DNA from: an uncultured Clostridia bacterium
Lineage (GTDB): Bacteria; Bacillota; Clostridia; Christensenellales; Borkfalkiaceae
Length of the DNA: 64,000 nucleotides
NCBI GenBank assembly: GCA_944354125.1
Contig: CALVPT010000010.1
Coordinates: forward strand, 11,543-75,542
Reading direction: 5' to 3'
Both the position numbers and the translations under genes were made by a program. The notes below the pieces were generated by a model that was given only the letters and a program-made list of their open reading frames with translations, did no database searches and was not told the origin of the DNA. This document shows, piece by piece, positions 21,150 through 62,460 of the stretch (positions are counted from its first letter, which is position 1; each line of letters starts with the position of its first letter).

Positions 21150-21153
21150 TAAG

Positions 21154-21202: not shown

Positions 21203-21226
21203 AATTTTTGTCTTTTTTTAAGCTCT

Positions 21227-22598: not shown

Positions 22599-22641
22599 TT
22601 CTCCTTATTATTTGATTTGTGCAACCATAAAGTGCATTTAC

Positions 22642-22670: not shown

Positions 22671-22780
22671 TGTAGTCTCCTTAAAGTTGTAATTCCGAAA
22701 GGCAGGTATCGTCCTGCCGCTTAAGCAATTTTATTATAAATCTTAAATCTTCCAATTAAAAGGAACTAAATCGGTATCTT

Positions 22781-22828
22781 CCCACAACTTATACAACACA
22801 CCCCAACTATACCCCAACAAAACCCAAC
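22781..22828. repeat. phased CCCCAAC iterons (GTTGGGG on the minus strand) between the sigma-like gene and int
   Basis: CCCACAAC at 22781, CCCCAAC at 22801 and 22812, CCCAAC at 22823. The last three are 11 bp apart (one helical turn). They are identical in copy B (39041-39088). Confidence 0.5.
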
Positions 22829-22882
22829 TAAATGGAGAGGGGAGAGGCTCTTATAAAGTTGAATTTGTATTGGATGTTCATA

Positions 22883-23896: not shown

Positions 23897-23942
23897 ACGC
23901 AGCACATTTGCGAGCGGGTTAGCGCAAAGTGCTGCGTTTTTG
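23896..23942. terminator. bidirectional rho-independent terminator
   Basis: The segment reads AACGCAGCAC-ATTTGCG-loop-CGCAAA-GTGCTGCGTT. It has an A-run upstream and a T-run downstream, so it is usable on either strand. Confidence 0.65.
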
Positions 23943-27116: not shown

Positions 27117-27164
27117 CAATTAACGAAAAGTCTGTTTAAATTTCAAATTCATAATGTTACATTG

Positions 27165-27197
27165 AATTCACCGAAGCGAATTTCGGTGAATTTTTTG
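27165..27197 (+). terminator. hairpin plus T-run between the kinase gene and the GH3 gene (terminator or attenuator)
   Basis: AATTCACCGAA (27165-27175) pairs with TTCGGTGAATT (27182-27192), followed by TTTTG. The GH3 ribosome binding site AGGAGG follows within 10 nt. Confidence 0.55.
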
Positions 27198-27212
27198 TTA
27201 GGAGGAAATGAG

Positions 27213-37431: not shown

Positions 37432-37477
37432 CCTCTGACTCCGTCATTCGTTGGCTCAAATCCAGCTACCCCAGCCA
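37432..37477 (+). repeat. attachment-site direct repeat, copy 2: tRNA-Gln 3' half with a T-loop mutation
   Basis: Identical to 21104-21149 except C at 37455 (T at 21127). That position is the invariant T54, so this copy cannot be part of a functional tRNA. Confidence 0.75.
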
Positions 37478-37480
37478 TAA

Positions 37481-37522
37481 AGAGCAAATTTTAACTGAAA
37501 TAAGTTAGAATTTGCTCTTTTT
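37481..37522 (+). terminator. rho-independent terminator after repeat copy 2 (sequence unrelated to the one after copy 1)
   Basis: AGAGCAAATT (37481-37490) pairs with AATTTGCTCT (37509-37518), followed by TTTT. Confidence 0.6.
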
Positions 37523-37617
37523 GTTTATATTTTGGGGCGTAAATTTGCTTATTTTTCTCAGTTTTATTGGCGAATTTAGCTCATTTGGGACTACTTTTGG
37601 GACTAAATACGGCTGCA

Positions 37618-38859
37618 CTATAGCGTATAATCATATTTTTGCGCCTCCTGTAATTGGTATTTTTCCGAAAAATCAGTATATCCTCTGTCCACGACGGATG
37701 TCTTTACGTCTTTGTCAAAGGAATGTCCGTCCCACAGCATAACGAGTTCGGGGTCAACATGACATTCTTTCGCTCTTGTTATAAAAGTATATCTCAACTC
37801 GTGAGTGTGATGGTTTGGAAATAGCCTTTTTATCGTCGTGTTTATCGTATTGAAGTTTGTCGATTTGGCTCTTTCAAAGTCAATGAACGGCAAAACCTTT
37901 CTCATCATAGGCGTGAAGGGGATACGGCGGCATACAACATCCTGACCCATTTTCTCTTTACTCGTCTCGCATTGCATCCAGTTATCGTCGAGAATTGTGA
38001 GGGTAGGAAGTTCGCTTCTTCGCATACCCGTATAGAGCAATACGAGCAGTGCGCTCGATGCGCTTAATTCTGGATGAGCTTTGCAGTAATCGACAAGCTG
38101 TTTCTCCTCTTCATAGGTGAATGCCTTGCCTTTCTTTGTCTGATAGTTAGGCAGTACGACTTTCTTCATAGGGGAGGGGATAGAAAAGTCCTCTGCCGCC
38201 ATATCGAATATGCAGTTGAGCATAAGAGCAAGTTTATCCGCTTTCCTGTGCTTATTTTCGCCGACTATTCCAAAGAGATAATTTTGCAGTTCGTTTCTCG
38301 TAATTTCTGCAAGAACTCTGTTGCCGAACATGGGCTCTAAATCTACACGGAAAGAACGCTCGTATTCCTTATAGGTAGAGGGCTTTGTCGTCTGCTCTTT
38401 GATTTTCAGCCAGTCACGACCGTAATCTCTGAATAGTACAGTGTGAGCTGTAGGTATTTCGGAAGTAATCTCTTCGACCTGTGGCTGTACGGCAGGACGG
38501 TCATAGAAGGCGGCAAGCCTTTGCATAAAGCGAGTGCGCATCGTCTCGAAATCTAGCCCCGAAGCCTCGATATACATTCCCTTGCGGCGTATGCGAGCCT
38601 CGAAGTACTCGTTGGAAGTTATTCTGTAATTTACTATGTAATTGTTTGCTATAAATATTTTCCTAGTATGTTCCGGTATGGCTTTAATCTCCTGTTTAGT
38701 AAATTTAAAGCCGCTTTTGCCATTTTCAGAAATGTTTTCCCTGGTCTTGACAATCTCGTCCATCGTCTTTCTGATAGCAGAGAGTTGTCCGTATAGTGCT
38801 GTGAACGGATCGTCCAAGGCGCAGTGTGCTAGATTACCTAATTTCTTTCGATAGTTCAA
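37618..38859 (-). CDS. int: tyrosine site-specific recombinase, copy B (mosaic relative of copy A)
   Basis: The N-terminal roughly 240 aa are nearly identical to copy A. The C-terminal catalytic half is much more divergent but keeps GMRRSEL, HELRYTF, DGHS and a terminal Tyr region. Confidence 0.9.
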   Translation of the reverse strand: MNYRKKLGNLAHCALDDPFTALYGQLSAIRKTMDEIVKTRENISENGKSGFKFTKQEIKAIPEHTRKIFIANNYIVNYRITSNEYFEARIRRKGMYIEASGLDFETMRTRFMQRLAAFYDRPAVQPQVEEITSEIPTAHTVLFRDYGRDWLKIKEQTTKPSTYKEYERSFRVDLEPMFGNRVLAEITRNELQNYLFGIVGENKHRKADKLALMLNCIFDMAAEDFSIPSPMKKVVLPNYQTKKGKAFTYEEEKQLVDYCKAHPELSASSALLVLLYTGMRRSELPTLTILDDNWMQCETSKEKMGQDVVCRRIPFTPMMRKVLPFIDFERAKSTNFNTINTTIKRLFPNHHTHELRYTFITRAKECHVDPELVMLWDGHSFDKDVKTSVVDRGYTDFSEKYQLQEAQKYDYTL

Positions 38860-38901
38860 TTCTCCTTATTGTTTGATTTGTGCAACCTAAAGTGCATTTA
38901 C

Positions 38902-38930
38902 AGTATAACACAGCTTTATAGATGTTGCAA
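38902..38930 (-). promoter_or_regulatory. promoter for int copy B (TTGCAA-17-TATACT on minus strand)
   Basis: Same sequence as 22642-22670. Confidence 0.5.
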
Positions 38931-39155
38931 TGTGGTCTCCTTAAAGTTGTAATTCCGAAAGGCAGGTATCGTCCTGCCGCTTAAGCAATTTTATTATAAT
39001 TCTTAATTTTACCAATTAAAAGGAACTAAATCGGTATCTTCCCACAACTTATACAACTCACCCCAACTATACCCCAACAAAACCCAACTAAATGGGGTAG
39101 GGAATAGCACTATGGCTGTGCTCTAATGTTGATATATGTGTATTGGCTGTTCATA

Positions 39156-39401
39156 TCATGCGTCTCCGAAACACTTGTTGTAACGCTTTTGAATGGTGTA
39201 TATCACAGAACCTATTGCTCCGACGCTTCTGTTGAGGATGCGTCCGATTTCGCCCATGCTAAGACCTGCCATACGGTGAGTGAGTACTTTGCGCTGGTAG
39301 TCATCGAGCTGCATTGTATCCATCATCTGCTCTACAACTTCGTGATCGTTGTCGTCAGCTTTATAAACTTCTTGCGCCTCTAAACGGTAAGCTTTATCCA
39401 A
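39156..39401 (-). CDS. sigma-like HTH gene with its N-terminal two-thirds deleted (81-aa region-4-only ORF; possibly a pseudogene)
   Basis: Aligns to residues about 127-207 of the 22883-23506 product. The deletion places the original AAGGAGG ribosome binding site 9 nt upstream of an in-frame TTG. Confidence 0.5.
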   Translation of the reverse strand: MDKAYRLEAQEVYKADDNDHEVVEQMMDTMQLDDYQRKVLTHRMAGLSMGEIGRILNRSVGAIGSVIYTIQKRYNKCFGDA

Positions 39402-39845
39402 GTCAACATGCCTCCTTGGATTTTTTCGTCTTTCGACGGGGTAAAAAGGGCATAGGCGATTTATTGATTGCAGAACTATTATGTAAGGGCATCCCCTGTC
39501 AACAGAGAGAGGAAATTTCCTGCTGTCGGTACTTTTGTGTCCTTATGGAATTTACGAGCGACATTGACTGGGGTAAACGGCTATGCCAAAATATCCCCTC
39601 GAAAGAGAAAGGTGGAGGTATAACCAAAAACACAGAATAGCCATAGAAGCTCTTAATTAGCGTTCTGACGGTGATTGAGGGTTAAGTCGAGTAAATTATC
39701 GGGGATAATACAAACAAGTGTTATAACTAAAATTACGCTATTCTGAGGGAAACAGCGTAACAGAACACGACGAGACAAAAAATAACGCAGCGCATTTGCA
39801 AGCGGGTTAGCGCAAAGTGCTGCGTTTTGTCCGACGTTCTGTCAT
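39402..39845 (-). other. second copy of the conserved non-coding block plus terminator
   Basis: Aligns along its whole length with 23507-23945, with scattered substitutions concentrated in the central loop. Confidence 0.5.
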
Positions 39846-49875: not shown

Positions 49876-50125
49876 ATGGATGCAAGACAGTTTTTCGGAA
49901 AGGAAAAAATAGGCAAAGTTCTCTTAAAGCTGGCTCCGCCCGTAATGCTCGCCCAGCTCATTCAGGCGCTCTATAACATAGTCGACAGTCTTTTCGCGGT
50001 TCGGGCTTACCTGGTTCTGGCTTACATACCCAGTCACCGAAACGGTGGTCACGATAGTCGGGTTCATATTCTACAAAAGGTTCATGGCTTCGGCGCGCGA
50101 AGGGAAACTCAAGGCGGCGGAGTAA
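49876..50125 (+). pseudogene. MATE efflux transporter remnant with a large internal deletion
   Basis: The first 40 codons MDARQFFGKEKIGKVLLKLAPPVMLAQLIQALYNIVDSLF form a MATE N-terminus. From about 49996 another frame reads GLTWFWLTYPVTETVVTIVGFIFYKRF...AAE*, a MATE C-terminus. About 380 codons in between are missing. Confidence 0.7.
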
Positions 50126-50248
50126 AAATTTAATGCGCTTGAATCGGACGGGATGTTCTTCCGCCCGTTTTTTCGTTCGCTATGGCTTATAAGTACACGC
50201 CGCGTTGCAACTGCGGGCTATGGCGGCGGCAAATTTATCTTACATATA

Positions 50249-50277
50249 TTGATTTTTGTAATAAATTGTGTTATGCT
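50249..50277 (+). promoter_or_regulatory. candidate extended -10 promoter of LytTR/kinase operon 2: TTGATT - 17 nt - (TGT)TATGCT
   Basis: TTGATT at 50249-50254 and TATGCT at 50272-50277, with TG at 50269-50270. Confidence 0.45.
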
Positions 50278-50379
50278 GTTCACAGATATGCTGGAATATT
50301 GCCGCCGCGGACGGACAGGAGAGGGCGTCTTTTGCCGCGGACGGGCAGCGTTTACGGGTAAGGAAAGGAGAGAGTGGCA

Positions 50380-51084
50380 ATGATAAACATAGCTATAATA
50401 GAGGATAACGCCGCCGATGCGAATCTGCTCAGGTCTTATATAGACAGATATTTCGCCGAGACGGATAAATCCTATAAGGTGGAGGTGTTCTCGGACGGGT
50501 TCAACTTCCTCAGCAACTATTCGGGCAAGTGCAACATTGCCTTTTTCGATATCGAGATGCCTCATATAGACGGAATGCAGGTGGCGCGCAGGCTTAGGGC
50601 CGTCGACTCCGAAGTATCCATAATATTCGTCACCAATATGGCAAAGTACGCCATAAACGGCTATGAGGTGAGCGCGCTCGACTTTATCATAAAGCCCGTC
50701 GAATATTTCCTTTTTCACGCAAAGATGGATAAGGCGGTGCGCATTCAGAGAAAGTATGCCAAGAGTTCCTACGTTATAGAGTGCCCCGACAAGATAGTAA
50801 AGCTCAAGGTGCAGAACATATTCTATGTCGAGAGCGACGGACACTTCGTTCTGTATCACACCGAGGACGGGGTGTACAGGGAGCGCAACACCATAAAGGA
50901 GGTGGAGGCAAAGCTCGCCCCTTTCGACTTTGTAAGGTGCAACAATTCATACCTCATAAATCTCGACCAGATAACTCTGGTAAAAAAGGACGTCGTGGAG
51001 GTCGGCGGCGACGTGGTGCCCATAAGCCGTTCGTTCAAAAAGAGCTTCATGAACGCGGTTACGGCATTCAATTGCGGAAGATGA
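50380..51084 (+). CDS. LytTR-family response regulator, copy 2
   Basis: Paralogous to 25093-25797 (IAIIEDN, IAFFDIEMPHIDGM, LytTR C-terminus NNSYLINLDQI). Start placed at ATG 50380 with an AAGGAGAG ribosome binding site. Confidence 0.9.
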   Translation: MINIAIIEDNAADANLLRSYIDRYFAETDKSYKVEVFSDGFNFLSNYSGKCNIAFFDIEMPHIDGMQVARRLRAVDSEVSIIFVTNMAKYAINGYEVSALDFIIKPVEYFLFHAKMDKAVRIQRKYAKSSYVIECPDKIVKLKVQNIFYVESDGHFVLYHTEDGVYRERNTIKEVEAKLAPFDFVRCNNSYLINLDQITLVKKDVVEVGGDVVPISRSFKKSFMNAVTAFNCGR

Positions 51085-51085
51085 C

Positions 51086-52378
51086 ATGAACGACTTTTTC
51101 ATAATACAGCTGTTAATCCCCTTCTTTTTAATATTCTGGCGGTTCAAAAAGCGCAGATATTTCTACGTGATGGCGCCGCTGGGCATAGTCGGCATAATAG
51201 CCGCACTGTACGGGCTGAACTTTGCCTTTGCGCTCATTGCCTCGCCGTACGGCTGGCTTTGCCACTATCTCGCAAGCTATGTGGCGGTATTCGTTCTTGC
51301 CAATCTGCTCTTCGAAATGGACGGCATAGACAAGCTGTTTTTCTGCGTGGTCGTGTTCGCCATTCAGAACTTTGCCCATCACTGTTGCCAGCTCGTCACG
51401 CGCTCGGTTTTCCTCATTACGGGCACGGACATGGAGTCGTATTTCTGGGGCGCGTTCGGCGCATATGCCGTCGCCTATGTCGTCGTATATGCGGCGTTCT
51501 GGGCGCTCATTTTAAGGAATAAGGTATTCGAACTGTCGGTGCCGCATTCAAAACTTGCAACCATATTCCTCGCCGCGGCGTTCGTAATGGTCATGATAGT
51601 GCTCGGCGTATACGTAAAGCACGGCCGTTCTGCCGTGCTTGCCGACCCCGGCATAAGGCTTGTATACGAGGTGTATTCGGTAATACTCGACGTGTTCATA
51701 CTCAGCATGCTCATTAGCGTATTCCATAACGACAAGATGCGCTTCGACGTGGACGAGCTTGAGCGGCGTCTCGCCCAGGAGAGCAGGTATTACGAGATGG
51801 CGCAGAGCAACATAGAGCTTATCAACATAAAGTGTCACGACCTCAAGCATCAGATTTCGATGTTTCAGAAACTCAACGACAAGGCGGCGTGCAGCGGCGA
51901 GATTGAGGAACTAAAAAACGCCGTAATGATTTACGACAACATAGCCAAGACCAATAACGAGGCGCTGGACTGCGTCCTTACAGAAAAGATGCTCTTCTGC
52001 AGCGAAAACAAGATTCAGTTCACGTATATCGCCGACGGTTCGCTGCTCAAAAACATGACCTATACCGACATATGCGCGCTGTTCGGAAACGCGCTGGACA
52101 ACGCCATAGAGAGCGTCATGAAGTCCGCCGACCCCCAAAGACGCGTAATGGGCATGAAGGTATTCGGCAGGGCGGGACTCATCAACATACATTTCGAAAA
52201 TTATTGTCCCCAGCCGCCCAAGCTCAACCAGGGCATGCCCGTCACCTCTAAGTCGGACGGAAAAAATCACGGCTTCGGCATGATAAGCATCCGCTACATC
52301 GTGCAGAAATACCGCGGCACAATGAATTTCGAGGTGGTGGACGATATGTTCTACCTGAACATATCTCTTCCGATGTGA
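51086..52378 (+). CDS. membrane sensor histidine kinase, AgrC/HPK10-like, copy 2
   Basis: About 6 TM helices. H-box NIKCHDLKHQISMF, N-box LFGNALDNAIES and G-box NHGFGMISI are present. Confidence 0.85.
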   Translation: MNDFFIIQLLIPFFLIFWRFKKRRYFYVMAPLGIVGIIAALYGLNFAFALIASPYGWLCHYLASYVAVFVLANLLFEMDGIDKLFFCVVVFAIQNFAHHCCQLVTRSVFLITGTDMESYFWGAFGAYAVAYVVVYAAFWALILRNKVFELSVPHSKLATIFLAAAFVMVMIVLGVYVKHGRSAVLADPGIRLVYEVYSVILDVFILSMLISVFHNDKMRFDVDELERRLAQESRYYEMAQSNIELINIKCHDLKHQISMFQKLNDKAACSGEIEELKNAVMIYDNIAKTNNEALDCVLTEKMLFCSENKIQFTYIADGSLLKNMTYTDICALFGNALDNAIESVMKSADPQRRVMGMKVFGRAGLINIHFENYCPQPPKLNQGMPVTSKSDGKNHGFGMISIRYIVQKYRGTMNFEVVDDMFYLNISLPM

Positions 52379-52408
52379 CAAAGAATAATAAATCGTACGG
52401 ATATGCCG

Positions 52409-52457
52409 AGAGGTCGCCGTTTTCCCGATGCAAGGGAACCACGGCGGCCTCTTTTTG
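52409..52457 (+). terminator. rho-independent terminator after kinase 2
   Basis: AGAGGTCGCCG pairs with CGGCGGCCTCT (one G-U pair), with an inner TTCCC/GGGAA helix, followed by TTTTT. Confidence 0.65.
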
Positions 52458-52552
52458 TCTTACGGGTTTGCCGCAAATGCTTGAGGTTTCAGGGCAAACG
52501 GGCTTTTGGGGTGCAGAATTGTAAGGCATTAAGGCATTTTAAACAAGTGCAA

Positions 52553-52586
52553 GTTATGCCAAAAACAATACAGGTTACGCCAAAAC
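52553..52586 (+). promoter_or_regulatory. pair of direct repeats GTTAYGCCAAAAC spaced 21 bp apart: candidate LytTR-regulator binding site
   Basis: GTTATGCCAAAAAC at 52553-52566 and GTTACGCCAAAAC at 52574-52586. A TATAAA -10-like hexamer lies at about 52599. The site is 130-165 nt upstream of the SGNH gene start. Confidence 0.45.
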
Positions 52587-52716
52587 GTGTAAGTCAGGCT
52601 ATAAAAAAAACTATTTTTGATATTTCTGTTGATTTTTTGTGCAGAACTTATAAAATAAATGCGAAATTTGTGAAGAGGGGTCACATGCGGTGACCGTAAT
52701 AAAAGGACGGGAAAAT

Positions 52717-53553
52717 ATGACTAAGAAGAAAAAGCTCATTATATCCATATCAGCCGTAGTCGTTGCGGTCATAATAGCGGCGGTTCTTCTGTTCATATTC
52801 ATAAAACCGTCCAACGGCAAAAAATATGACGTCTCGGGCTGCACGGTGAACACGTCGAGTCCGCTCTACGGCAAGACGTTTTACTGGCTGGGCTCTTCGG
52901 TAACGCTGGGCATGAGGAGCCAAAATCAGGCCGTTCCCGACTTTCTGGCGGCGAGAAACGGCTGCGTATGCAAGAAGGAGGCCGTCTCCGGCACGACGCT
53001 GTTCGACGTCGAAAAGAAGGGACAGCCCTCGTATGTGTCCCGCCTCAAGTCGACTACGGAGTTTGATAAAGACGCGGATATAGACGCATTTATCTGCCAG
53101 ATATCGACAAACGACGCAAAGTCGGAATTTTCCTCCCTGTGGGGGGAGGTGTCTCAGACATACTACACCGACCCCTCGCAGATTGACACAGGCACCACGG
53201 CAGGCGCGATGGAATTCGTCGTGACGTACGTGGAAAAGACGTGGGATTGCCCCATATATTTCTATTCGGGTTCTTACTTTACGGACAGCGGCGTGCGCGG
53301 CTCCAAGGACCCTTCCAGGGAAAACTATGAAAAGATTATAGACCTTGCGGAGGACGTCGCAAAAAAGTGGAATGAGGTAGAAGGCTACCAGATCGAAATA
53401 ATAGACCTCTTCCACGACGAGGAATTCAATGCAATCTCCGACGAGGATTATAAGGTCTATATGCACGACCCCGTTCACCCCTATAAGGCGGGATATCTCC
53501 TGTGGTGGACGCCGGCTTTCGAAGAGGTGTTTTTCGAGGACTTCGGTAAGTAA
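52717..53553 (+). CDS. membrane-anchored SGNH/GDSL-type hydrolase (likely carbohydrate esterase)
   Basis: N-terminal TM helix is LIISISAVVVAVIIAAVLLFIFI. Block I is YWLGSSVT and block V is DPVHP (D-x-x-H). Confidence 0.7.
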   Translation: MTKKKKLIISISAVVVAVIIAAVLLFIFIKPSNGKKYDVSGCTVNTSSPLYGKTFYWLGSSVTLGMRSQNQAVPDFLAARNGCVCKKEAVSGTTLFDVEKKGQPSYVSRLKSTTEFDKDADIDAFICQISTNDAKSEFSSLWGEVSQTYYTDPSQIDTGTTAGAMEFVVTYVEKTWDCPIYFYSGSYFTDSGVRGSKDPSRENYEKIIDLAEDVAKKWNEVEGYQIEIIDLFHDEEFNAISDEDYKVYMHDPVHPYKAGYLLWWTPAFEEVFFEDFGK

Positions 53554-53611
53554 CTATGTCTTAAGGGCGTAGTCATTTATACAACTTGAGAATTATTTAA
53601 GGAGGGTTTTA

Positions 53612-56600
53612 ATGAAAATCACGAACAAGACAAAAAATGTCGCGCGCGGTCTGACGGGTATATTTGCCGGGCTGTTGGCATTTTCAATCGGAACGACTTC
53701 GGTAGTGAATACCTATCGTTCCTGGATCAATACTCAGCTCGGAACTAAAAACAGTATAACTGTTAACGGCGAGGTTGACCCCAACGAGGACCTCTACAAT
53801 TACAGAGTAAAGAGCGTAGAGGAAACGGGTTATGACCTCACCACCACCAAGGGCGTCTATGACTACCAGAAGGCAGCGGCAATAGAGATTGCAAGCGAGG
53901 GCATCGTGCTTTTGAAAAATAACCAATCTCTTCCCCTTGCAAAGAACAGCGACGTAACTCTTCTCGGCACGGCGGCATACAGCGTATGGCACGGCGGCAC
54001 GATGGGTTCAATGCCCGTAACCAGCGAAAAGATTTCCTTTGTGGATGCCCTTTCCGACCAGGGCATGAAGGTAGACCCTGCGGCTAAGGCTGCCTATGAA
54101 AAGGCTCCCGGCTATGGCGAAACCGTAACAGAAAACCCTTGGGGCGGTACTTCCGTCAGCTCAAATCTTTCCAGCCTTTCAAGCGGCAAGTTCACTCTCA
54201 ACGAATCTTCTCCCGCAGACGTAGGACTTGCAGACAAGAGCGCAAAAGGCGGTACGGCAATAATCGTCCTTGCAAGGCAGGGCGGTGAAAACGGCTACTA
54301 TCTCCCCGGCGAGGAGGGCAAGGCGGTAGAGGGTCAGTTCGATGCAGACCACGACGTTCTCGGCCTTTCCGTAAAGGAGATGGAGACGATAAAGTATGCA
54401 AACAAGAACTATGACAACGTTGTCGTAATCGTCAACTCCGACTCTGCTATGGACATCCCCGAACTCTTCGAAGAGGGCGGCGAGTACGAGGTTGACTCGG
54501 TTGTATGGGCAGGCCTTCCCGGAACTTATGGCTGGGTAGCCGTTGCTCAGGTGCTCGACGGCACGGTAAATCCCTCGGGTGCAATGGTCGATACATATGC
54601 CGCAAAGTCCAGCGTAAACGCTGCTAACCAGAACTATGGCGTGTTCACCTTCGCAAATGCCGATACTGAAAACGTGAACAACGAAAAGAGCTCTTGGTAT
54701 ATGCCCGAAACCGAAGGCATCTACGTCGGCTACAGATACTATGAATCGCGCTACTATGACTGCGTAATGGATCAGGGCAATGCGTCAATCGCTCATAAGG
54801 GCGAAAATCAGGATACGGCAAAGTCTACGGCTACCGAGTGGAACTATTCGGACGAAGTCGTTGCAAGCTTCGGCTACGGCCTTTCCTATACGACCTTCTC
54901 CGAGACAATCAACAGCGTCAATGTCGATTTCAACGCTAAGACCGTAACTGCAGAAGTTACCGTACAGAATACGGGCGAGGTTGCAGGCAAGCACGCCGTT
55001 CAGCTCTATGTCAGCGTTCCTTACACCGACTATGACAAGGAGCACGGCATCGAAAAGTCGGCAATTCAGCTCATCGGCTACGAAAAGACGGGGCTTCTCG
55101 AAAAGGGTAAGAGCGAGACGGTCACCGTCACGGCTGACTTCCAGTACTTCGCATCCTATGACAGCGAATTCGAACATCACAACACCAAGGGCGCATATGT
55201 GCTCGATGAGGGCAACTATGTCTTCTCCGTAGGCAACGGCGCACACGACGCGCTCAACAACGTGCTCGCATCTCAGGGCAAGGGCGTTTCGGACGGAATG
55301 GACTATGCAGGCGATGCGGCTAAGGCAGTTTCCAAAGAGTTCGGTTTTGTCGAAATGCTCTATTCCGAGAGCGGCGAAGTTATAGAAAACCAGCTTCAGG
55401 ACATGGAGCTCGACAACTTCGAAGAGAACATTGTCGAACTTTCCCGTTCGGACTGGAATGCAACCTGGCCCAAGACCTATGACAATCTCAGCTCAACGGC
55501 TGCAATGGAGCCCGGACTCAACTGCCAGGTATATGAAGTTCACGAGACGGATAACGGCGGCAAGGAAGTTATCTGGGGTGCTGATACCGATTACACATTC
55601 TTCTCGTGCAAGCCTGAAAAGGGTGAGTGGATAGAATATGATGACGAGCGCCTTATAAACCTCATACAGCAGGTAACGCTTGAAGAGGCTATCGCAGCCG
55701 TCACTCAGTGCGGCGGTCAGGACTGGGATGAGTTGCCCTCGATTGAGAGCCCTAAGATCAAGACTACAGACGGCCCTGTAGGCTATGATGCAGAAAGAGG
55801 CATGCTCAGCATTGACTGGAACGACAACAATGACGAATATGACTGCCCCGATGACGACCCTTACGGTCAGATTGAAATGCGTCCTCTTCCCACTATGCCC
55901 GTAATAGGCGCAACCTTCAGCCACGAAATGGCAGAAAAGTCGGGCGAAGTGCTCTCCATGCTCGCGCTCTGGTCGGGCGTTGCAGAGGTATGGGGCCCCG
56001 GCGTCAACATTCACAGAACGGCATACAATGCGCGTAACCACGAGTACTATTCCGAAGATCCCGTTCACCTTGCAAACATGGCAAACGACTTCGCAACCGA
56101 AGCCCAGAAGAACGGTCTTGTAACCTGCCTCAAGCACTTTGCGTTCAACGATACCGAAGCCAACAGGTCGGGCGTTGCTCCTTTCATGAGCGAGCAGAGG
56201 GCAAGAGAGCTTGACTTAAGGGCATTCCAGCTTGCAATCGAAAACGAGACGGCCCTTGCAGTCATGACAGGTTTCAACCGCGCAGGTTCAACTTTCTCCA
56301 GCGCACACAAGGGTCTCATAACGGGCATTCTCCGCGAAGAGTGGGATTTCAACGGCTTCTGCCTTACGGATATGGTAAGCCCTGCTTACTACATGAATCC
56401 CCGTGATGCCATTGCGGCAGGTACCGACGGCATGCTTACTTCTTCCAGCGCGAACAACATCAACAACAATATCAACGGCTGGGGCGAGTTCACTCCCGAA
56501 GGCCTTGCAGATGATATGGATATGCAGCAGAGGATTCAGGATGCCGTACATCGCGCACTCTACATCTTCATCAACTCCAACGTAACCAACGGCTCTGCAA

Positions 56601-56755
56601 GAACGGCTTACAATAAGTGGGTTCTTACCTGGTACGACGGCGTTCTCATTGCGGCAACGACTGTGACGGCAGTTCTGACTGCAGTCTCTGCGGCAGGCTA
56701 TGTGACCACCAAGGTATTGCTCAAGAAGAACGAAAATAACGCAGAGGAGGCATAA
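53612..56755 (+). CDS. glycoside hydrolase family 3, domain-permuted, with N- and C-terminal TM helices
   Basis: N-terminal helix is LTGIFAGLLAFSIGTTSVV. Motifs IVLLKNNQSLPL and FGYGLSYTTF are followed by GPGVNIHRTAYNARNHEYYSEDP, KHFAFNDTE and GFCLTDM. C-terminal helix is VLIAATTVTAVLTAVSAAGYV. Confidence 0.85.
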   Translation: MKITNKTKNVARGLTGIFAGLLAFSIGTTSVVNTYRSWINTQLGTKNSITVNGEVDPNEDLYNYRVKSVEETGYDLTTTKGVYDYQKAAAIEIASEGIVLLKNNQSLPLAKNSDVTLLGTAAYSVWHGGTMGSMPVTSEKISFVDALSDQGMKVDPAAKAAYEKAPGYGETVTENPWGGTSVSSNLSSLSSGKFTLNESSPADVGLADKSAKGGTAIIVLARQGGENGYYLPGEEGKAVEGQFDADHDVLGLSVKEMETIKYANKNYDNVVVIVNSDSAMDIPELFEEGGEYEVDSVVWAGLPGTYGWVAVAQVLDGTVNPSGAMVDTYAAKSSVNAANQNYGVFTFANADTENVNNEKSSWYMPETEGIYVGYRYYESRYYDCVMDQGNASIAHKGENQDTAKSTATEWNYSDEVVASFGYGLSYTTFSETINSVNVDFNAKTVTAEVTVQNTGEVAGKHAVQLYVSVPYTDYDKEHGIEKSAIQLIGYEKTGLLEKGKSETVTVTADFQYFASYDSEFEHHNTKGAYVLDEGNYVFSVGNGAHDALNNVLASQGKGVSDGMDYAGDAAKAVSKEFGFVEMLYSESGEVIENQLQDMELDNFEENIVELSRSDWNATWPKTYDNLSSTAAMEPGLNCQVYEVHETDNGGKEVIWGADTDYTFFSCKPEKGEWIEYDDERLINLIQQVTLEEAIAAVTQCGGQDWDELPSIESPKIKTTDGPVGYDAERGMLSIDWNDNNDEYDCPDDDPYGQIEMRPLPTMPVIGATFSHEMAEKSGEVLSMLALWSGVAEVWGPGVNIHRTAYNARNHEYYSEDPVHLANMANDFATEAQKNGLVTCLKHFAFNDTEANRSGVAPFMSEQRARELDLRAFQLAIENETALAVMTGFNRAGSTFSSAHKGLITGILREEWDFNGFCLTDMVSPAYYMNPRDAIAAGTDGMLTSSSANNINNNINGWGEFTPEGLADDMDMQQRIQDAVHRALYIFINSNVTNGSARTAYNKWVLTWYDGVLIAATTVTAVLTAVSAAGYVTTKVLLKKNENNAEEA

Positions 56756-56756
56756 A

Positions 56757-57233
56757 ATGAAACTTAAATTAAACTTAACGTCAATCGGCGCCGCAGTCGT
56801 ATGCGTGCTTACGATAGTTGCAATTATCCTCTTTTCGGCAGCCTATAACAGCTGCTACGGATATTTCGAGATGCAGTATCCCTCGCTCCCCTACGTCATT
56901 GCGTTCGGCATAATCACAATTCTCCTTTCGGTTGCGGTTATCGTCCTTCCCATGCTCGAGATTGAGGGAACGGCAAAGAAGACAGTTTCCATAGTAGTCG
57001 ACGTATGCGTGGTTGCAGTCTGCGTATTCGCCTGCATAACGGGCGTATATGCCGCCAAGGCTTCCGTATACGAGATGGCTCTCACCTGGGCATCCGAACT
57101 TCACTCCAACGAGCCCTATATGATAGCGGCTTGCCAGAACGCGCTGATTTCCATAATTCTCAGCGTAGTCGGAATGCTCGTAATGGGCGTGACTGCATGC
57201 ATATCGCTCAAAGTTGCAGGCAAGAAGGGATAA
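56757..57233 (+). CDS. small 4-TM membrane protein, translationally coupled to the GH3 gene
   Basis: The ATG is 1 nt after the GH3 stop. Four hydrophobic helices are present. No family recognised. Confidence 0.6.
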   Translation: MKLKLNLTSIGAAVVCVLTIVAIILFSAAYNSCYGYFEMQYPSLPYVIAFGIITILLSVAVIVLPMLEIEGTAKKTVSIVVDVCVVAVCVFACITGVYAAKASVYEMALTWASELHSNEPYMIAACQNALISIILSVVGMLVMGVTACISLKVAGKKG

Positions 57234-57386
57234 GTAATTTTCCTCAGAATATTTTCTCCTTAAAGAAAGGTGGCCGATTTCATCGGTCACCTTTTTTGCG
57301 GGAGATATGTCATTATTTCATAAAATTATTGACAAATAATTGCCCTCGGGTGGCAATAGTTGTATTATATTTACGGAGGAACTCTG

Positions 57387-58685
57387 ATGAAAAGGCTCCG
57401 CGATTATTTCAAAAGCAAAAAACTCACGGATATATTTAACCTTGCCGTTGCGGTCGCCGTGACGGTCACGGCATTTATCTGCGCCTGCAGGTACGTTGCG
57501 TTTGGCGACATAGTCCTCGGCATATCTATGACCATGATATGCGTGCTGTTTGCGCTCGTCTCGTCTGCGGCATATTCAATGCGCCTGCCCGTACTCAACA
57601 TAGCTGTCGGCGTCGGCGGAATTGTAATGCACACGCTGACAAACTATTCGGGCATAATGTTCGGCGAATATGTCGCCGTTGCCGTGCTCGGAACAGGCGG
57701 CGGCTTTGCGACAACAATCTTGCAGATAGTCGGGAAACAGCCGCCCGTAAAGGCTTTTACCTCGTCGCTCGCCGTCGCGATAGCCATATTTATCTTCGGC
57801 GGAGTCGTCTGCGCGTCCTATATCTCCGCGGCAAGGGGGAGGGAGTACGCCGCCGACGAACTTTGGGCGGTGCCCGAAAAGTATGACGGCGTCGAATGCC
57901 CCGAAAAGGGCACGCTCGAAAGGGTGGAATATGCAACTAAGGCATACGCCACCGACGGCCGCGCGGTCACAAAGGGCGCATACGTATATCTGCCTTACGG
58001 CTATGACGAGTCCCGAGAGTACGACATTTTATATCTCATGCACGGCACGGGCGACGACGAGGCGTACTGGCTGGAGGAATACTCATACAATAAGACGATG
58101 GTCGACAATCTCATATATTACGGCGATATACGGCCGCTCATAATCGTCACGCCGACGTTCTATACGGAGGACGACTGCGCCGACAATCTGGATGAGCTTA
58201 CATATTCTTTCAGGGACGAGCTGAGGCTCGATCTGATGCCGTATATCGAGAGCAGATATTCGACCTATGCGCAAACCGCCGACGACGTCGGGTTCGAGGC
58301 GAGCCGCGACCACCGCGCGTTTGCAGGCCTTTCCAGGGGTGCCGTGACGATGTTCCATTCGGCGATGTGCGAAAGTTTAGACTATTTCTCGTGGTTCGGC
58401 GCCTTTTCCGGCAGCAGGACGACCAGGGAGGAGTTCGTCTCTTCCCTGCAGTCGGAGGAATTTGCCGACTACGACATAAACTATCTCTACGTTACGGGCG
58501 GCGCGTTCGACTTTGCCCTGCCCTCACAGATAAGAGATTACAGACAGCTGCTGTCCGCGGAGGACAGACTTACGGAGGGCGTGAACACGTCGTTTGTCAG
58601 CCTGCCCGTTCAGCGGCACGCCATGGGCAACTGGCACATAAACCTGTATAATTTCCTGCAGAAGATATTCATATACGCTGGTTAA
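57387..58685 (+). CDS. esterase (alpha/beta hydrolase, putative-esterase/feruloyl- or acetyl-esterase type) fused to an N-terminal polytopic membrane domain
   Basis: About 5 TM helices occupy the first 150 aa. These are followed by YVYLPYGYDESREYDILYLMHGTGDDEAYW and a nucleophile elbow GLSRG. GGAGGA ribosome binding site before ATG 57387. Confidence 0.75.
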   Translation: MKRLRDYFKSKKLTDIFNLAVAVAVTVTAFICACRYVAFGDIVLGISMTMICVLFALVSSAAYSMRLPVLNIAVGVGGIVMHTLTNYSGIMFGEYVAVAVLGTGGGFATTILQIVGKQPPVKAFTSSLAVAIAIFIFGGVVCASYISAARGREYAADELWAVPEKYDGVECPEKGTLERVEYATKAYATDGRAVTKGAYVYLPYGYDESREYDILYLMHGTGDDEAYWLEEYSYNKTMVDNLIYYGDIRPLIIVTPTFYTEDDCADNLDELTYSFRDELRLDLMPYIESRYSTYAQTADDVGFEASRDHRAFAGLSRGAVTMFHSAMCESLDYFSWFGAFSGSRTTREEFVSSLQSEEFADYDINYLYVTGGAFDFALPSQIRDYRQLLSAEDRLTEGVNTSFVSLPVQRHAMGNWHINLYNFLQKIFIYAG

Positions 58686-58698: not shown

Positions 58699-58731
58699 GC
58701 GCAGGGCGAAAGTTTTTCTTTCGCCCTGCGC
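58699..58731. terminator. bidirectional terminator between the esterase and the convergent GH2 gene
   Basis: GCGCAGGGCGAAAG pairs with CTTTCGCCCTGCGC. It has an A-run before and a T-rich loop. Confidence 0.7.
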
Positions 58732-58763: not shown

Positions 58764-60683
58764 CTATTTTTCCCAGGAAATGTTGTTGGACGCAACTTTC
58801 AGCCTGTATTCGGGGTCTGCCTTTCTTACGCGCACAAACTGGCACTCGTCGCTAAAATCTCCGGCACGTGCCTGAATTTTGTTGACTTTTTGAAGTTTTA
58901 TTCTGAACAGGAATATCCTGCCGTCCTTTGTTTTGCCCTTAACCTGTCGGCCGTTATTGGTCAGCAATACTTCGCCGGCATTGGAATACACCTTGATTTT
59001 AGCCGTCTTGCCCTCGCGGTTTTTGTACCGCTTGCCGCATATGTGCACGAACTTGTCGCTGCTCCAGAATGCCTTATAAAGGTAGTAGGCGTCCTTTTTA
59101 ATCTGTCGGTCAAAGGTCACAAGCCCCTTGTGATTTTTGCCCGGGTCGCCGCCCTGATTTCTTCCGTCGGCGCCGAAGTCGAACATATTCCATAGGTGCG
59201 TCGCCCAAAGATAGGGGTGTCGGTCGAAAAATCTGAGCATATATTCGTGGTATATCGTCTGATATTCCTCGGTGTTGTCAAATCGTTTCGGCCTTTTTGC
59301 GTGCAGGTTGGTCATGGCCTCAGCGCCGTATTCCGAATAGCCTATGCACCGCTTGGGGTAGAGGAAATGGAAGAGTTTCAGCCATACGTCGTTTAAAAAC
59401 AGTCCCGGGGCGTACCAGCCGAGGTAGAGGTTCCACGATACTACGTCGGTGATGTGCGCCGTCCTGTTCGTGTGCAGGCAGCTTGCAAAGCAGGCAAGCA
59501 CGGTCAGTCGGTCGGGGTCAAGACGGTGACACAGCTCATTCAGCTGTCTGTGCGTATTCAGCATATCCTTTTTGTCCGTCTTCATCATGGTTATCTCGTT
59601 GGATATGCCCCACGCGACTATGCTGGGGTGGTTGTATTGCTGATATATGAGTTCGCTCATCTGGCTTACGGCGTTACTGTCGCCGCCGTTCATATGGCGC
59701 GAGATGTACGGTATTTCCGCCCAGACGACAAGTCCCGCGCGGTCGCACAGGTCATAGAAATAGTCGTCGTGCTGATAGTGCGCCAGCCTGACCGTGTTGG
59801 CGCCTATGTCGAGTATCATCTTCACGTCCTGCTCGTGGTCGGCTCTGGACAGGGCGTTGCCCTTTCCCAATCTGTCCTGGTGTCGGCATACGCCGCGCAA
59901 GGGGTACGACCTGCCGTTGAGCATAAAGCCCTTTTGCGGATCGACGGAAAAACTTCTGAACCCGAAAGAGGAGGATATCTCGTCGCATACCTCGTCGCAG
60001 GCTACAATCTTAGCCGTCGCCCTGTAAAGATACGGGTCTCTAAGACCGTCCCAAAGGCGCACGTTCTTAAGGCGTATCTCTTCGCCGTTCGGCGCGGTCG
60101 CAACTATGCGCCCCTCTCCGTCGTATATGGTTATGTCAACCTGTCCCTCGCCCACATTGTAGGCAGTGACCGTGACTATGCCATCTCTGCCGTCGGTTTT
60201 CGGCACTATTTTAATGGGGTTGCAGCCGAAAAAGTCCAAATCGAAGTGGTTCTTGCCGACGATGATAAAGTTTACGTCGCGGTATATTCCGCCGTAAAAC
60301 GTAAAGTCGGCGCGCTGGGGATATACCCTGTCGTTGACCGAGTTGTCTGCAAGCACTTTGAGCACGTTCCGCTCTCTGAGGTACGGGGTAAGCCTGGCGC
60401 GGAAGGTCGAATATCCTCCGTCGTGCGTCGCCGCAAGGCAATCGTTCAGGTATACCTTTGCGGAGGCGTTTACGCCCTTGAACTCGGCATACAGCTCGTC
60501 CCCGTCGCAGAGCGCAGGCCTGTCGAAAACATATTCGTAGGTGCATTCGCCCCTGTAGTAGTCGTTTCCGCCGTCCTGTCCGTCCTCGGCGTTCCAGGTG
60601 TGCGGAAGATCGACGGCGCTGCGGCTGCCGTCTGCCGAATTTATGAATTGCCAGCCGCTGTCAATGTTAATAATCCTGCGCAT
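58764..60683 (-). CDS. glycoside hydrolase family 2 (beta-galactosidase/beta-glucuronidase-like)
   Basis: N-terminus is DSGWQF...LPHTWN. Acid/base region is WGISNE and nucleophile region is GYSEYGAEA. Confidence 0.85.
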   Translation of the reverse strand: MRRIINIDSGWQFINSADGSRSAVDLPHTWNAEDGQDGGNDYYRGECTYEYVFDRPALCDGDELYAEFKGVNASAKVYLNDCLAATHDGGYSTFRARLTPYLRERNVLKVLADNSVNDRVYPQRADFTFYGGIYRDVNFIIVGKNHFDLDFFGCNPIKIVPKTDGRDGIVTVTAYNVGEGQVDITIYDGEGRIVATAPNGEEIRLKNVRLWDGLRDPYLYRATAKIVACDEVCDEISSSFGFRSFSVDPQKGFMLNGRSYPLRGVCRHQDRLGKGNALSRADHEQDVKMILDIGANTVRLAHYQHDDYFYDLCDRAGLVVWAEIPYISRHMNGGDSNAVSQMSELIYQQYNHPSIVAWGISNEITMMKTDKKDMLNTHRQLNELCHRLDPDRLTVLACFASCLHTNRTAHITDVVSWNLYLGWYAPGLFLNDVWLKLFHFLYPKRCIGYSEYGAEAMTNLHAKRPKRFDNTEEYQTIYHEYMLRFFDRHPYLWATHLWNMFDFGADGRNQGGDPGKNHKGLVTFDRQIKKDAYYLYKAFWSSDKFVHICGKRYKNREGKTAKIKVYSNAGEVLLTNNGRQVKGKTKDGRIFLFRIKLQKVNKIQARAGDFSDECQFVRVRKADPEYRLKVASNNISWEK

Positions 60684-60778
60684 AAGTGTATCGTTACCTT
60701 AAAATAATCTCGTAACACAATTATAACATGCCTGTCCGCCATTGCAATTGCAGATTTTAGCTTAGGATATTGCAATTA

Positions 60779-61174
60779 TTACTGTCTGCCGCCCTTTGGC
60801 GGATGCCCTATAATCTTTGTGTAGTTGCGGTAAAAGGTAGAGTAGTCGTTATATCCGTACCGCTCGGCGAGCTCGGTTAGCTTTACTTCGCCCTCGCATA
60901 TCTCCTTATGCGCGGCGATTATCTTTTTATATTTGACGTACGTCATGAGCGAGGTCTTCATCTCCTTGGCAAACTCGTTGCATATGTAGGATTTTGAGTA
61001 GTGCAGGTCCTCGCATATGTCGTTGAGGTCGAAGGAGGAGCAAAGGTGCTCGTTTATGTAGTCTATTATCTCGGAAATTATGGGCTTTTTGGTTATGTTC
61101 TCCCTGTTCGGCTGCGCTCCGCCGTCGTAGTCCAGGTCTATGAGTATTCTGAGGAGCTGAGACGGCATAAGCAC
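60779..61174 (-). CDS. AraC-family HTH domain only (sensor domain missing; probably a truncated gene)
   Basis: 131 aa consisting of the double HTH (ICEDLHYSKSYICNEF...ELAERYGYNDYSTFYRNY). Its 5' end abuts a truncated uxuA. Confidence 0.6.
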   Translation of the reverse strand: MLMPSQLLRILIDLDYDGGAQPNRENITKKPIISEIIDYINEHLCSSFDLNDICEDLHYSKSYICNEFAKEMKTSLMTYVKYKKIIAAHKEICEGEVKLTELAERYGYNDYSTFYRNYTKIIGHPPKGGRQ

Positions 61175-61188
61175 TCTCTTTTCCTCAC

Positions 61189-62105
61189 ATGAGCGGAGTC
61201 GTCACGGCGGTCTATGACGTCCCCGTCGGCGAGGCGTGGAGCAGTCAGTCTGTCGGACGATTGAAATCGCTCTGCGACTTTCACGGGCTCGCCATGGAAG
61301 TCATAGAGTCCATACCCGTCCACGAGGACATAAAGACGGGCGGAACAGGGCGTGACCGTTACATAGAAAACTATTGCAAAAATATCCGCACGGTCGCCTC
61401 ATACGGAGTCAGGTGCGTGTGCTATAACTTCATGCCCGTATTCGACTGGCTGCGCACGGACATGCATTTCAGGCACGCCGACGGCTCGGACTCGCTGGCC
61501 TACTCGCACGAAGATTTCGCAAAGGTTGACCCTGAAAATCTGCGCCTTCCCGGGTGGGACGAAAGCTATTCTTCAAGCCAGTTGCAGGACCTCTTGAAGA
61601 CGTATTCGCATATTTCTCACGAACAGCTGTTTGAAAACCTCGTCTATTTCCTCGAAAGGGTTATTCCCGTATGCGAGGAGACGGGCGTCAACATGGCAAT
61701 ACATCCCGACGACCCTCCCTGGGACGTATTCGGACTGCCCAGGATAATCAGCAATGAAAAGGATCTGGACAGGCTGTTTGCGGCGGTACCCTCGGTAAGG
61801 AACGGGCTTACGTTGTGCACGGGCTCGCTCGGGGCAGGCAGGCAAAACGACCTGGTGCATATGGCGGCTAAATATGCCTCTCAGGGCAGGGTGCATTTCC
61901 TGCACCTCAGAAACGTGCTGTATACGGACGACAAGGACAGCTTCTGCGAAGTCGGTCACCTTACAAAGGCAGGCAGTCTGAATATGGCTGCCATAGTCAG
62001 GGCGCTCGTCGAAAACGGCTTCGACGGATACGTGCGGCCCGACCACGGCAGGAATATCTGGGACGAAAACGGCAAGCCGGGCTACGGGCTCTACGACAGG
62101 GCGCT
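61189..62105 (+). pseudogene. uxuA: mannonate dehydratase, truncated at both ends
   Basis: Starts at ...GVVTAVYDVPVGEAWS, with about 23 N-terminal residues missing by comparison with E. coli UxuA as recalled. It contains VCYNFMPVFDWLRTD, AIHPDDPPW and RPDHGR. It loses homology after GYGLYDRALGA. Confidence 0.7.
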
Positions 62106-62200
62106 CGGCGCTCTTATTCGTATCAGACAGGGCGGCGGGCTTCATTACGGGCATAGTATTGCCCATAGACGGCGGATTCTCGGCATATTCGGGCGTCTGA
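62099..62200 (+). pseudogene. C-terminal tail of a short-chain dehydrogenase/reductase fused to the uxuA remnant
   Basis: The alternative frame reads ...ALLFVSDRAAGFITGIVLPIDGGFSAYSGV*, the conserved SDR C-terminus. Confidence 0.6.
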
Positions 62201-62460
62201 AAAGATTTATAAGATATTTTTCTCCTGACTCACGCCGATTTTGCAGGCGATTCGGTCGGCAAATCGGCGTGAATTTTCTCGTTTTGCAAGGCGGAAACGC
62301 CTGCAAAATATAATGCTCGGAGTGCGCTCGCGCATCCAATATAATTGCCTGCACAGGGGCAGGACAATATATGTCATCGCCATATTGACATATGAAAATT
62401 TTCTCCCCTTCGGATAGTTTCGGCTAAAAATCGTCGGGACTATCTTTTTTTATAATGTAT

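Follow-up and report, generated by a model that had tools for sequence, protein, structure and literature searches.

Two-component systems of the AgrC/AgrA, ComD/ComE and VirS/VirR kind combine a polytopic sensor kinase, which has six to seven transmembrane (TM) helices, no large outside domain and a HATPase_c_5 domain, with a response regulator composed of a receiver (REC) domain and a LytTR domain. The conserved regulated neighbours of these systems are toxins, bacteriocins and competence genes. Here we describe a gene module of the same architecture, module 2, in a 64-kb stretch of DNA from an uncultured Clostridia bacterium (the window, by which we mean the whole stretch; all positions are in window numbering), in which the conserved regulated neighbour is instead a glycoside hydrolase. 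Unlike those systems, the module carries no pheromone precursor, processing or export genes and no autoregulatory repeats, and no Pfam family or solved structure is detectably similar to its sensor domain. The main question is what signal such a seven-TM AgrC-type sensor picks up, given that the partner conserved with it is a glycosidase anchored in the membrane. Our overall model, to which we assign a probability of about 0.65, is that a constitutive seven-TM AgrC-type kinase and its LytTR regulator activate an adjacent operon of surface-tethered, exo-acting carbohydrate enzymes.

The association of such regulators with glycoside hydrolases of family 3 (GH3) is itself not new. Butyrivibrio proteoclasticus B316 has three LytTR regulators, and close to each of them is a secreted GH3 that bears a C-terminal TM helix (polysaccharide utilization loci PUL7, 21 and 33; Kelly et al. 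2010, PMC2914790). The observation occupies two sentences of a genome description, without kinase typing, binding sites, distribution or experiments (PMC2914790). Judged from this description, the B. proteoclasticus loci are apparently the same module, with a LytTR regulator beside an anchored GH3 in several paralogous copies. A literature search returned only this 2010 genome remark, with no experimental study of the module and no follow-up. The Gram-positive polysaccharide utilization loci (gpPULs) of Roseburia and Eubacterium rectale include a transporter and are usually regulated by LacI, AraC or an AraC-type response regulator, and one Roseburia locus, Ros-7, is listed with a LytTR regulator and a histidine kinase (PMC5320581). 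Like the gpPULs, the module clusters a regulator with carbohydrate-active enzymes (CAZymes); unlike them, it has no transporter, and all of its enzymes are membrane-tethered. What appears to be new is how widely the association extends, that it is limited to GH3s that are anchored, the type of kinase, the architecture of the binding sites, the lack of a peptide loop, and a partner protein with four TM segments (4-TM protein).

Genes were mapped by open reading frame (ORF) listing and Pfam scans of the window proteins. Between 50380 and 58685, the module runs in the order LytTR regulator, AgrC-type kinase, terminator, repeat-bearing promoter and four co-directional genes. The genes are as follows:

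50380-51084, plus strand: response regulator with receiver and LytTR domains, 234 aa (Pfam Response_reg 2.7e-15, LytTR 1e-18)
51086-52378, plus strand: AgrC-type (HPK10) histidine kinase, 430 aa (HATPase_c_5, PF14501, 5.4e-23)
52690-53553, plus strand: membrane-tethered SGNH hydrolase, starting at GTG 52690 or ATG 52717 (weak Pfam GDSL match, conserved blocks, AlphaFold2 (AF2) fold)
53612-56755, plus strand: domain-permuted GH3, 1047 aa (Pfam domain order GH3_C, Fn3-like, GH3_N)
56757-57233, plus strand: small 4-TM protein, 158 aa (hydropathy; no significant Pfam match)
57387-58685, plus strand: polytopic CE1 feruloyl-esterase-like protein with five TM segments (PF00756 2e-08, hydropathy)

The ORF listing bears out the gene positions of the original prediction, which was made from the sequence of this window, with only the start codons of the SGNH and esterase genes adjusted. 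For the esterase, ATG 57387 (432 aa, the public-assembly call) is a more likely start than the listed TTG 57360. The gap between regulator and kinase is 1 nt, as is the gap between the GH3 stop and the start of the 4-TM gene. Hydropathy places hydrophobic anchors in all four downstream products and so supports the earlier view that each carries its own; the N-terminal segment of the GH3 may be a cleaved signal peptide and not a second anchor.

The pairing of this kinase with a permuted GH3 is conserved over a wide range of divergence. The exact kinase is present on 22 gut-metagenome contigs with gene order unchanged, and the window proteins also occur in NCBI, ENA and Logan assemblies. A permuted GH3 is found in every annotated context examined for the kinase homologues (9/9; identities from 89% to 32%), in one of them in convergent orientation. 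Specifically, homologues at 89, 62, 49, 43, 38, 33 and 32% identity all adjoin a permuted GH3 of 975-1050 aa, and the pairing persists where the enzyme operon is convergent (loci L010 and L011). In one locus, a Gp49/HTH_37 (HigB/HigA-like) toxin-antitoxin pair lies between kinase and GH3, the module being otherwise intact (L014, 11357-12003).

To determine the distribution of the module, we searched a kinase alignment against one genome per species, which yielded at least 581 loci with kinase relatives, and scored the neighbourhoods of the best 80. A full-length, collinear GH3 lies within 10 kb of the kinase in 70 of these 80 best loci. Among well-flanked loci, defined as having at least 4 kb on both sides, the GH3 lies within 10 kb in 48/52 and within 1.5 kb in 38/52. 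The 48/52 set covers kinase homologues of 29-49% identity from Clostridia, 'Bacilli' metagenome-assembled genomes (MAGs) and Bifidobacterium. Carriers include Oscillospiraceae, Christensenellaceae, 'Coproplasma', 'Borkfalkia', Lachnospiraceae, Hungatella, Blautia, Pseudoflavonifractor, Gemmiger, 'Bacilli' MAGs, Bifidobacterium moukalabense and Olsenella, and the kinase loci also include one from a Butyrivibrio MAG (L053). The module is often present in multiple copies per genome.

A reverse scan, started from GH3s in metagenomes with the kinase sought nearby, found the kinase near 30 of 35 permuted GH3s that have a C-terminal TM segment, compared with only 1 of 9 that lack one (Fisher p 5.7e-5). 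A functional rather than accidental linkage of regulator and enzyme is strongly supported by these comparisons, because of the synteny, the reverse association specific to anchored GH3s, and the family-wide 21-bp repeats described below. The original prediction had argued for the same linkage from the duplication of the regulator-enzyme arrangement within the window. The linkage stands on this other evidence; the duplication argument is weak, the second copy (module 1) being probably acquired cargo.

The GH3 is the one universal downstream gene; the other three genes, for which synteny with the two-component pair had also been proposed as a check, are accessory. Orthologues of the SGNH hydrolase are confined to the closest clade. 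The esterase is sporadic and occurs in a handful of loci, with orthologues adjoining the module in L007/L019, L014, L079 and L096. A 4-TM ORF of 131-163 aa follows the GH3 directly, overlapping it or separated by a few bases, in about 30 loci, or about a third of GH3s. In other loci, the kinase is followed by CBM6/CBM35/Big_3 proteins or an MFS_2 sugar transporter, and MBOAT and surface-protein genes lie nearby in some relatives. A conserved cytoplasmic GH2 of ~790-800 aa (N-terminal ...LPHDAM..., C-terminal ...DTYYGEALA...) recurs just downstream of the GH3-4TM pair. The loci with this enzyme are L018, L023, L025, L042, L053, L057, L061, L062, L066, L080, L081 and L084; in L061 and L066, it follows the kinase in a locus without GH3.

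The regulatory elements assigned to the module are the following:

50250-50277, plus strand: sigma-70-type promoter of the regulator-kinase pair, TTGATT, spacer, TGTTAT (block kept in L096, L095 and L009; flanks diverge)
52408-52460, plus strand: intrinsic terminator closing the regulator-kinase transcript (hairpin 52408-52453, dG -33.4 kcal/mol, z -5.5, followed by the U run UUUUUGUCUU)
52545-52612, plus strand: candidate LytTR binding sites (direct repeats CAAGTTATGCCAAAA at 52550 and CAGGTTACGCCAAAA at 52571, 21 bp apart, with a weaker, degenerate copy at ~52595)
52629-52656, plus strand: predicted enzyme-operon promoter, -35 TTGATT, -10 TAAAAT / TATAAA (consensus scan; block kept in L096, L095 and L009)
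58699-58731, no strand assigned: hairpin between the convergent esterase and GH2 genes (dG -28.3 kcal/mol, z -6.2; U run on the minus strand), likely the end of the enzyme operon

Thus, the terminator followed by a repeat-containing promoter region, as originally described, is recovered as a stable hairpin with its U run and a set of 21-bp direct repeats. The repeats CAAGTTATGCCAAAA and CAGGTTACGCCAAAA are the sole non-low-complexity pair in the window that matches at 10/11 positions or better at 21-bp spacing. An alignment that includes the loci with 89%, 74% and 62% identical kinases delimits a conserved block at ~52545-52660, which contains both repeats, the degenerate proximal repeat region and the TATAAA -10 element. 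The DNA upstream of 52545 is unrelated between the aligned loci, and the repeats are kept in L096 and L095 (kinases 89% and 74% identical). The window repeat motif has no match beyond chance upstream of the regulator, the esterase or the GH2, and repeat scans found no 21-bp-spaced repeats upstream of the regulator (50380); therefore, the circuit contains no Agr/Com-style autoinduction loop.

We then asked how the repeats behave across the family, using 57 independent intergenic regions downstream of the kinase, with the expectation taken from shuffles. Repeats at exactly 21 bp that match at 9/10 positions or better occur in 16/57 regions (0.2 expected), and those that match at 8/10 or better occur in 28/57 (3.1 expected). 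There is no comparable peak at any other spacing, and the neighbouring spacings are at background; a small excess is seen at 31-33 bp, with 2-3 regions each compared with about 0.3 expected (L001-L094). Many repeat cores are alike across loci (ACAGGTTACGC, ACAGGATACGG, ACAGTTGGGGC and TTTACGAC), and GACCAnTTTTACC represents a second group. In the convergent loci, the 21-bp repeats are likewise found upstream of the enzyme operon. The repeat core (C)AGTTAYGC presumably resembles the AgrA and VirR box cores. The module resembles the ComE system in that its target promoter carries imperfect direct repeats at 21-bp spacing. In particular, ComE sites consist of 9-bp repeats with a 12-mer linker between them (PMC4005675), a spacing equal to the 21 bp of the module.

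The regulator and kinase are paralogues of the pair in module 1 (regulator 25093-25797, kinase 25800-27116), as the original prediction held. The regulators share 37% identity over their full length (E 6e-51) and the kinases 30% (E 4e-52), and the H-box KCHDLK is present in both kinases. In alignment with the module 1 regulator, the receiver-domain motifs IIED, FDIEMP and FIIKPV are present. Among 27 homologues, no variation is seen at kinase residues H251 (in KCHDLKHQ), N335, N339, G396 and G398, which belong to the H-box and the N and G boxes. Hydropathy predicts about seven TM helices, without a large outside loop, followed by DHp and GHKL domains, and the AF2 model (pLDDT 82.5) shows seven N-terminal helices, with TM7 continuous with the DHp helix. 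HATPase_c_5 is the sole kinase domain recognisable by Pfam, and the AgrC cytoplasmic module is both the only sequence match in the Protein Data Bank (PDB) and the top Foldseek match. Pfam searches at E up to 10 gave no match for the sensor domain, not even to a LytS-type sensor, and it has no structural neighbour among solved structures. We place the two proteins, by architecture, as a LytTR/HPK10 two-component system. We set this system apart from peptide quorum-sensing circuits, because two features that define those circuits, linked pheromone genes and autoregulatory repeats, were both looked for and not found. Specifically, neither the module nor any of the homologous contexts that are annotated contains AgrB/AgrD, ComC/ComAB-like, pheromone precursor, processing or export genes.

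The GH3 is circularly permuted, with the Pfam domain order GH3_C, Fn3-like, GH3_N, as are both GH3s of module 1; the permutation had been missed in the original prediction. Its alignments are collinear with the module 1 GH3s and with about 70 related GH3s. Permuted GH3s are already known from GlyA1 (PMC5104943) and BrGH3A (PMC11233000), and 5K6L (GlyA1) and 5WUG (a Paenibacillus barengoltzii enzyme) are described as permuted GH3s (PMC11233000). The subfamily has been linked to gut and rumen microbes (PMC5104943, PMC11233000). BrGH3A is reported to have no signal peptide (PMC11233000), and neither a TM segment nor a kinase is mentioned in the GlyA1 and BrGH3A papers (PMC5104943, PMC11233000). 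The module GH3 resembles GlyA1, BrGH3A and 5WUG in its order of alpha/beta sandwich, FnIII and TIM barrel and in shared conserved motifs. Unlike the permuted subfamily as described, the module GH3 and its relatives are ~1000 aa long, have terminal hydrophobic segments and are kinase-linked. In the module GH3, hydropathy places these segments at residues 14-32 and 1004-1022, around an ectodomain of 970 residues, and both are present in 68/84 related GH3 ORFs of the kinase loci. The C-terminal helix has no conserved motif beyond hydrophobicity and one Trp in 19 homologues.

The solved structures nearest to the GH3 are those of Thermotoga neapolitana Bgl3B (TnBgl3B, 2x40), 5k6l and 5wug, and its nearest relatives are beta-glucosidases. 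Residue D920 aligns with TnBgl3B D242, the nucleophile and the site of the substitution in the 2x42 mutant. The counterpart of E226 is residue 458 of TnBgl3B (2x40). Glu458 is assigned as the acid/base of that enzyme. Both D920 and E226 are invariant in 19 diverse homologues. The GH3, the SGNH hydrolase and the esterase all appear intact. In one strain variant (L001), the GH3 is broken into ORFs of 814 and 225 aa (12527-15670) and the convergent GH2 is shortened (17679-19019). The 225-aa GH3 and 446- or 386-aa GH2 cluster members are found on several contigs, and the recurrence of these fragments suggests strain-level pseudogenisation.

The SGNH hydrolase scores below the gathering threshold of the Pfam GDSL model. 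However weak that score, residues S60, G92, N132 and D251-x-x-H254 are invariant in 48 homologues, and the AF2 model (pLDDT 95.4) has an SGNH fold. Its PDB neighbours are all below 20% identity and functionally mixed, comprising CE2 enzymes, carbohydrate acetylesterases, aryl esterases and lipases; the hydrolase received no CAZy esterase family assignment. Hydropathy predicts one N-terminal TM segment, which is replaced by a lipobox in some orthologues. The esterase is predicted to have five TM segments, followed by a PF00756 domain outside the cell. It carries a GLSRG (GxSxG) motif and matches the feruloyl esterase domains of Clostridium thermocellum XynY and XynZ in the PDB (1gkk and 1jjf; 2.5e-29 and 2.8e-23). 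A decorated hemicellulose or beta-glycan is a plausible substrate of the predicted enzymes, and fits because of the CE1 feruloyl-esterase similarity together with the intact SGNH tetrad; small-molecule plant glycosides are an equally open alternative.

The 4-TM protein has four TM segments with both termini predicted inside. It has no significant Pfam family, with only sub-threshold matches to DUF7598 and MARVEL. LrgA, holin and AgrB were considered as identities and ruled out, as there is no match to these families. An exhaustive profile search of 1.84 billion proteins identified 29 representative clusters, and a word-indexed search returned 14 matches. The sequence diverges fast, and the closest named relative, from Candidatus Coproplasma stercorigallinarum, is 63% identical. 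Conservation is far higher in the two predicted outside loops, YNxCYGYFEMQ and AKASVYEMALTWxSELHxNEPYM, than in the TM helices (window protein and P0384-P0396), which hints at an extracellular partner or ligand.

According to our model, the kinase and regulator would be expressed constitutively and would respond to a signal, sensed within the membrane or at it, that is tied to the substrate or the product of the GH3. The phosphorylated regulator, as a tandem dimer, would bind the 21-bp-spaced direct repeats upstream of a weak promoter, and we infer that this binding would switch the enzyme operon on rather than repress it. The invariant core of the operon would be the permuted GH3, held at the membrane by its C-terminal helix, and the extras at this locus would be an SGNH (acetyl-type) esterase, the 4-TM partner and the polytopic CE1 feruloyl-esterase-like enzyme. 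Working at the cell surface, the enzymes would strip plant-derived glycans or glycosides of acyl groups and of terminal beta-linked sugars. A dedicated secreted peptide is probably not the signal, which most likely has to do with this substrate or product.

Several observations weigh against this model. A clear 21-bp repeat is absent in about half of the homologous intergenic regions, and the candidate repeat pair of module 1 is weak (9/11, ACGCAAAGT / ACGAAAAGT at 27102 and 27123) and overlaps the end of the kinase gene. A Mantel-type test on 22 loci gave no sign that similarity between LytTR domains co-varies with similarity between repeats (rho -0.01, p 0.55); only three pairs exceed 50% LytTR-domain identity, and their repeats are more similar (8.4/12 positions compared with about 5.5). 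About 75 nt separate the strong repeats from the predicted -10 element, compared with only about 37 nt in L009, so that the degenerate proximal copies may be among the functional sites. The best curated NCBIfam matches of the GH3 (arabinopyranosidase, beta-glucosidase and xylosidase) all lie far below their cut-offs. Pfam and NCBIfam scans found no sugar transporter between 50249 and 58731, which is unusual for a nutrient-acquisition locus. The nearest ATP-binding cassette (ABC) system, of the BPD_transp_2 / ABC_sub_bind type, lies at 40.6-43.4 kb, with housekeeping genes between it and the module. Finally, all characterised AgrC-type kinases known to us sense peptides, and a pheromone gene could be located elsewhere in the genome.

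A more far-reaching reading is that a family of seven-TM AgrC-type kinases has been redirected from peptide quorum sensing to the monitoring of a surface glycosidase, either by intramembrane contact with the GH3 anchor, the 4-TM protein or both, or through a membrane-partitioning hydrolysis product such as an aglycone. We advance this tentatively, as a possibility that falls well short of even odds. If true, it would be a new and widespread mode of glycan or glycoside sensing in Gram-positive gut bacteria that uses neither an extracellular ligand-binding domain nor a transporter.

Enzyme-coupled sensing, taken by itself, holds that the C-terminal TM helix of the GH3, possibly with the 4-TM protein, contacts the seven-TM kinase sensor within the membrane and reports substrate occupancy or turnover; BceAB-BceS and DctA-DcuS are comparable cases in which a transporter or accessory protein acts as co-sensor. 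Such contact would fit a kinase without an extracytoplasmic domain for glycan binding, and it would fit the specificity of the kinase link for GH3s with a C-terminal TM segment and the retention of both terminal hydrophobic segments in most of the associated enzymes. The 4-TM gene, located one nucleotide after the GH3 stop and encoding strongly conserved predicted outside loops, points in the same direction. However, the GH3 C-terminal helix offers no conserved motif apart from hydrophobicity and the one Trp, the 4-TM protein is missing from most loci, and the anchoring correlation could reflect a difference in regulation between surface and cytoplasmic enzymes. We consider this mechanism unlikely; if the enzyme or the 4-TM protein does serve as co-sensor, the module would provide a new example of enzyme-coupled signalling.

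We regard as still less likely that the module is a canonical peptide quorum-sensing system, in which glycosidase production follows cell density through an autoinducing peptide encoded elsewhere. The AgrC/HPK10 type of the kinase core, the LytTR regulator and the ComE-style repeat architecture would all be expected of such a system, and, to our knowledge, the known members of this kinase type (AgrC, ComD, PlnB, FsrC and VirS) are peptide receptors. However, the module and its annotated homologous contexts lack AgrB/AgrD or ComC/ComAB-like genes, and the regulator-kinase genes lack the upstream repeats of an autoinduction loop. Furthermore, the kinase tracks the anchored enzyme in >90% of well-flanked loci, and several paralogous kinase-GH3 pairs occur per genome, a pattern that fits substrate-specific sensing better than density sensing.

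A role in cell-envelope remodelling, in which the module would trim or de-acylate the cell's own wall or capsule glycans in a LytSR-like manner, seems very improbable. LytTR systems such as LytSR control envelope functions, and the SGNH and GH3 families count peptidoglycan O-acetyl esterases and NagZ among their members. By hydropathy, every enzyme is tethered to the surface of the cell's own membrane, the module has no transporter, and the MBOAT and surface-protein genes of the relatives would suit such a role. Yet the GH3 matches beta-glucosidases/xylosidases far better than NagZ (NagZ model E 2.8e-4 compared with 1.5e-57), the esterase is closest to plant-cell-wall feruloyl esterases, and other loci contain CBM6/CBM35 proteins and a sugar transporter. 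In addition, unlike LytSR-LrgAB, the module has neither a LytS-type match for its sensor nor an LrgA match for its 4-TM protein. A chance juxtaposition of a CAZyme operon with an orphan two-component system, which the terminator between the units and their separate promoters in the window would allow, is effectively refuted by the comparative data, namely synteny kept across phyla and orientations, enrichment of the 21-bp repeats and the significant reverse association.

Glycan sensing in Gram-positive gut and rumen bacteria is far less understood than the Sus-like paradigm of Bacteroidetes. The module is common and, unexpectedly, ties a kinase class viewed as peptide receptors to a single class of anchored glycosidase. 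It is also testable: the promoter element and the partner proteins are defined, and candidate carriers that can be cultured include Hungatella effluvii DSM 24995, Pseudoflavonifractor capillosus ATCC 29799, Gemmiger sp. An87, Bifidobacterium moukalabense DSM 27321 and B. proteoclasticus B316. The identity of the inducer would help to predict which dietary glycans or plant glycosides uncultured Clostridia respond to, and would yield an orthogonal sensor-promoter pair for the engineering of anaerobes.

Module 1 shares with module 2 only the regulator, kinase and GH3 logic, the GH3 being the only enzyme type in common. It lies within a 16.3-kb integrase-flanked unit: direct repeat blocks of about 2.8 kb (21104-23940 and 37432-39828, 78-98% identical) flank it (25.1-36.7 kb), and each contains a tyrosine integrase (21369-22598 and 37618-38859, 76% identical). 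Each block opens with a 49-nt segment like a tRNA 3' end; no intact tRNA is present in the window. The integrase-flanked unit and the tRNA-like 3' end therefore suggest that module 1 is probably acquired mobile cargo of tandem integrative elements and not a local duplication. The true GH3 start of module 1 is ATG 27213, with a lipobox-like FSSAC, and the stretch between it and the kinase stop contains a hairpin with a U run (27168-27189, dG -16 kcal/mol, z -5.2). The region 27102-27213 may be an attenuator or a 5'-untranslated-region (5'-UTR) element.

On the other side of module 2, the convergent GH2 gene (58764-60683) was considered as a part of the module and rejected, as it lies on the opposite strand, beyond the hairpin, and pairs with AraC and UxuA genes. 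Its product is closely homologous to beta-glucuronidases of the gut microbiome (6mvg, E 4e-208) and differs in type from the ~790-aa GH2 that follows the GH3-4TM pair elsewhere. Together, the GH2, the AraC-type regulator and the mannonate dehydratase UxuA (58764-62313) form a separate glucuronide-utilisation unit adjoining the module. Upstream of the regulator, a remnant of a MATE efflux gene is present at 49876-50133, with MatE-like N-terminal residues after which the frame decays; in a strain variant (L005), an intact 445-aa MatE gene lies between ppk and the regulator. At the far end of the window, a polysaccharide biosynthesis cluster of low GC content (1-20834; 32-45%, compared with roughly 50% in the second half of the window) encodes a phosphomannomutase, an NTP-transferase/PMI, three GT4 glycosyltransferases, a Wzy-like polymerase, a flippase and a GDP-mannose dehydratase.

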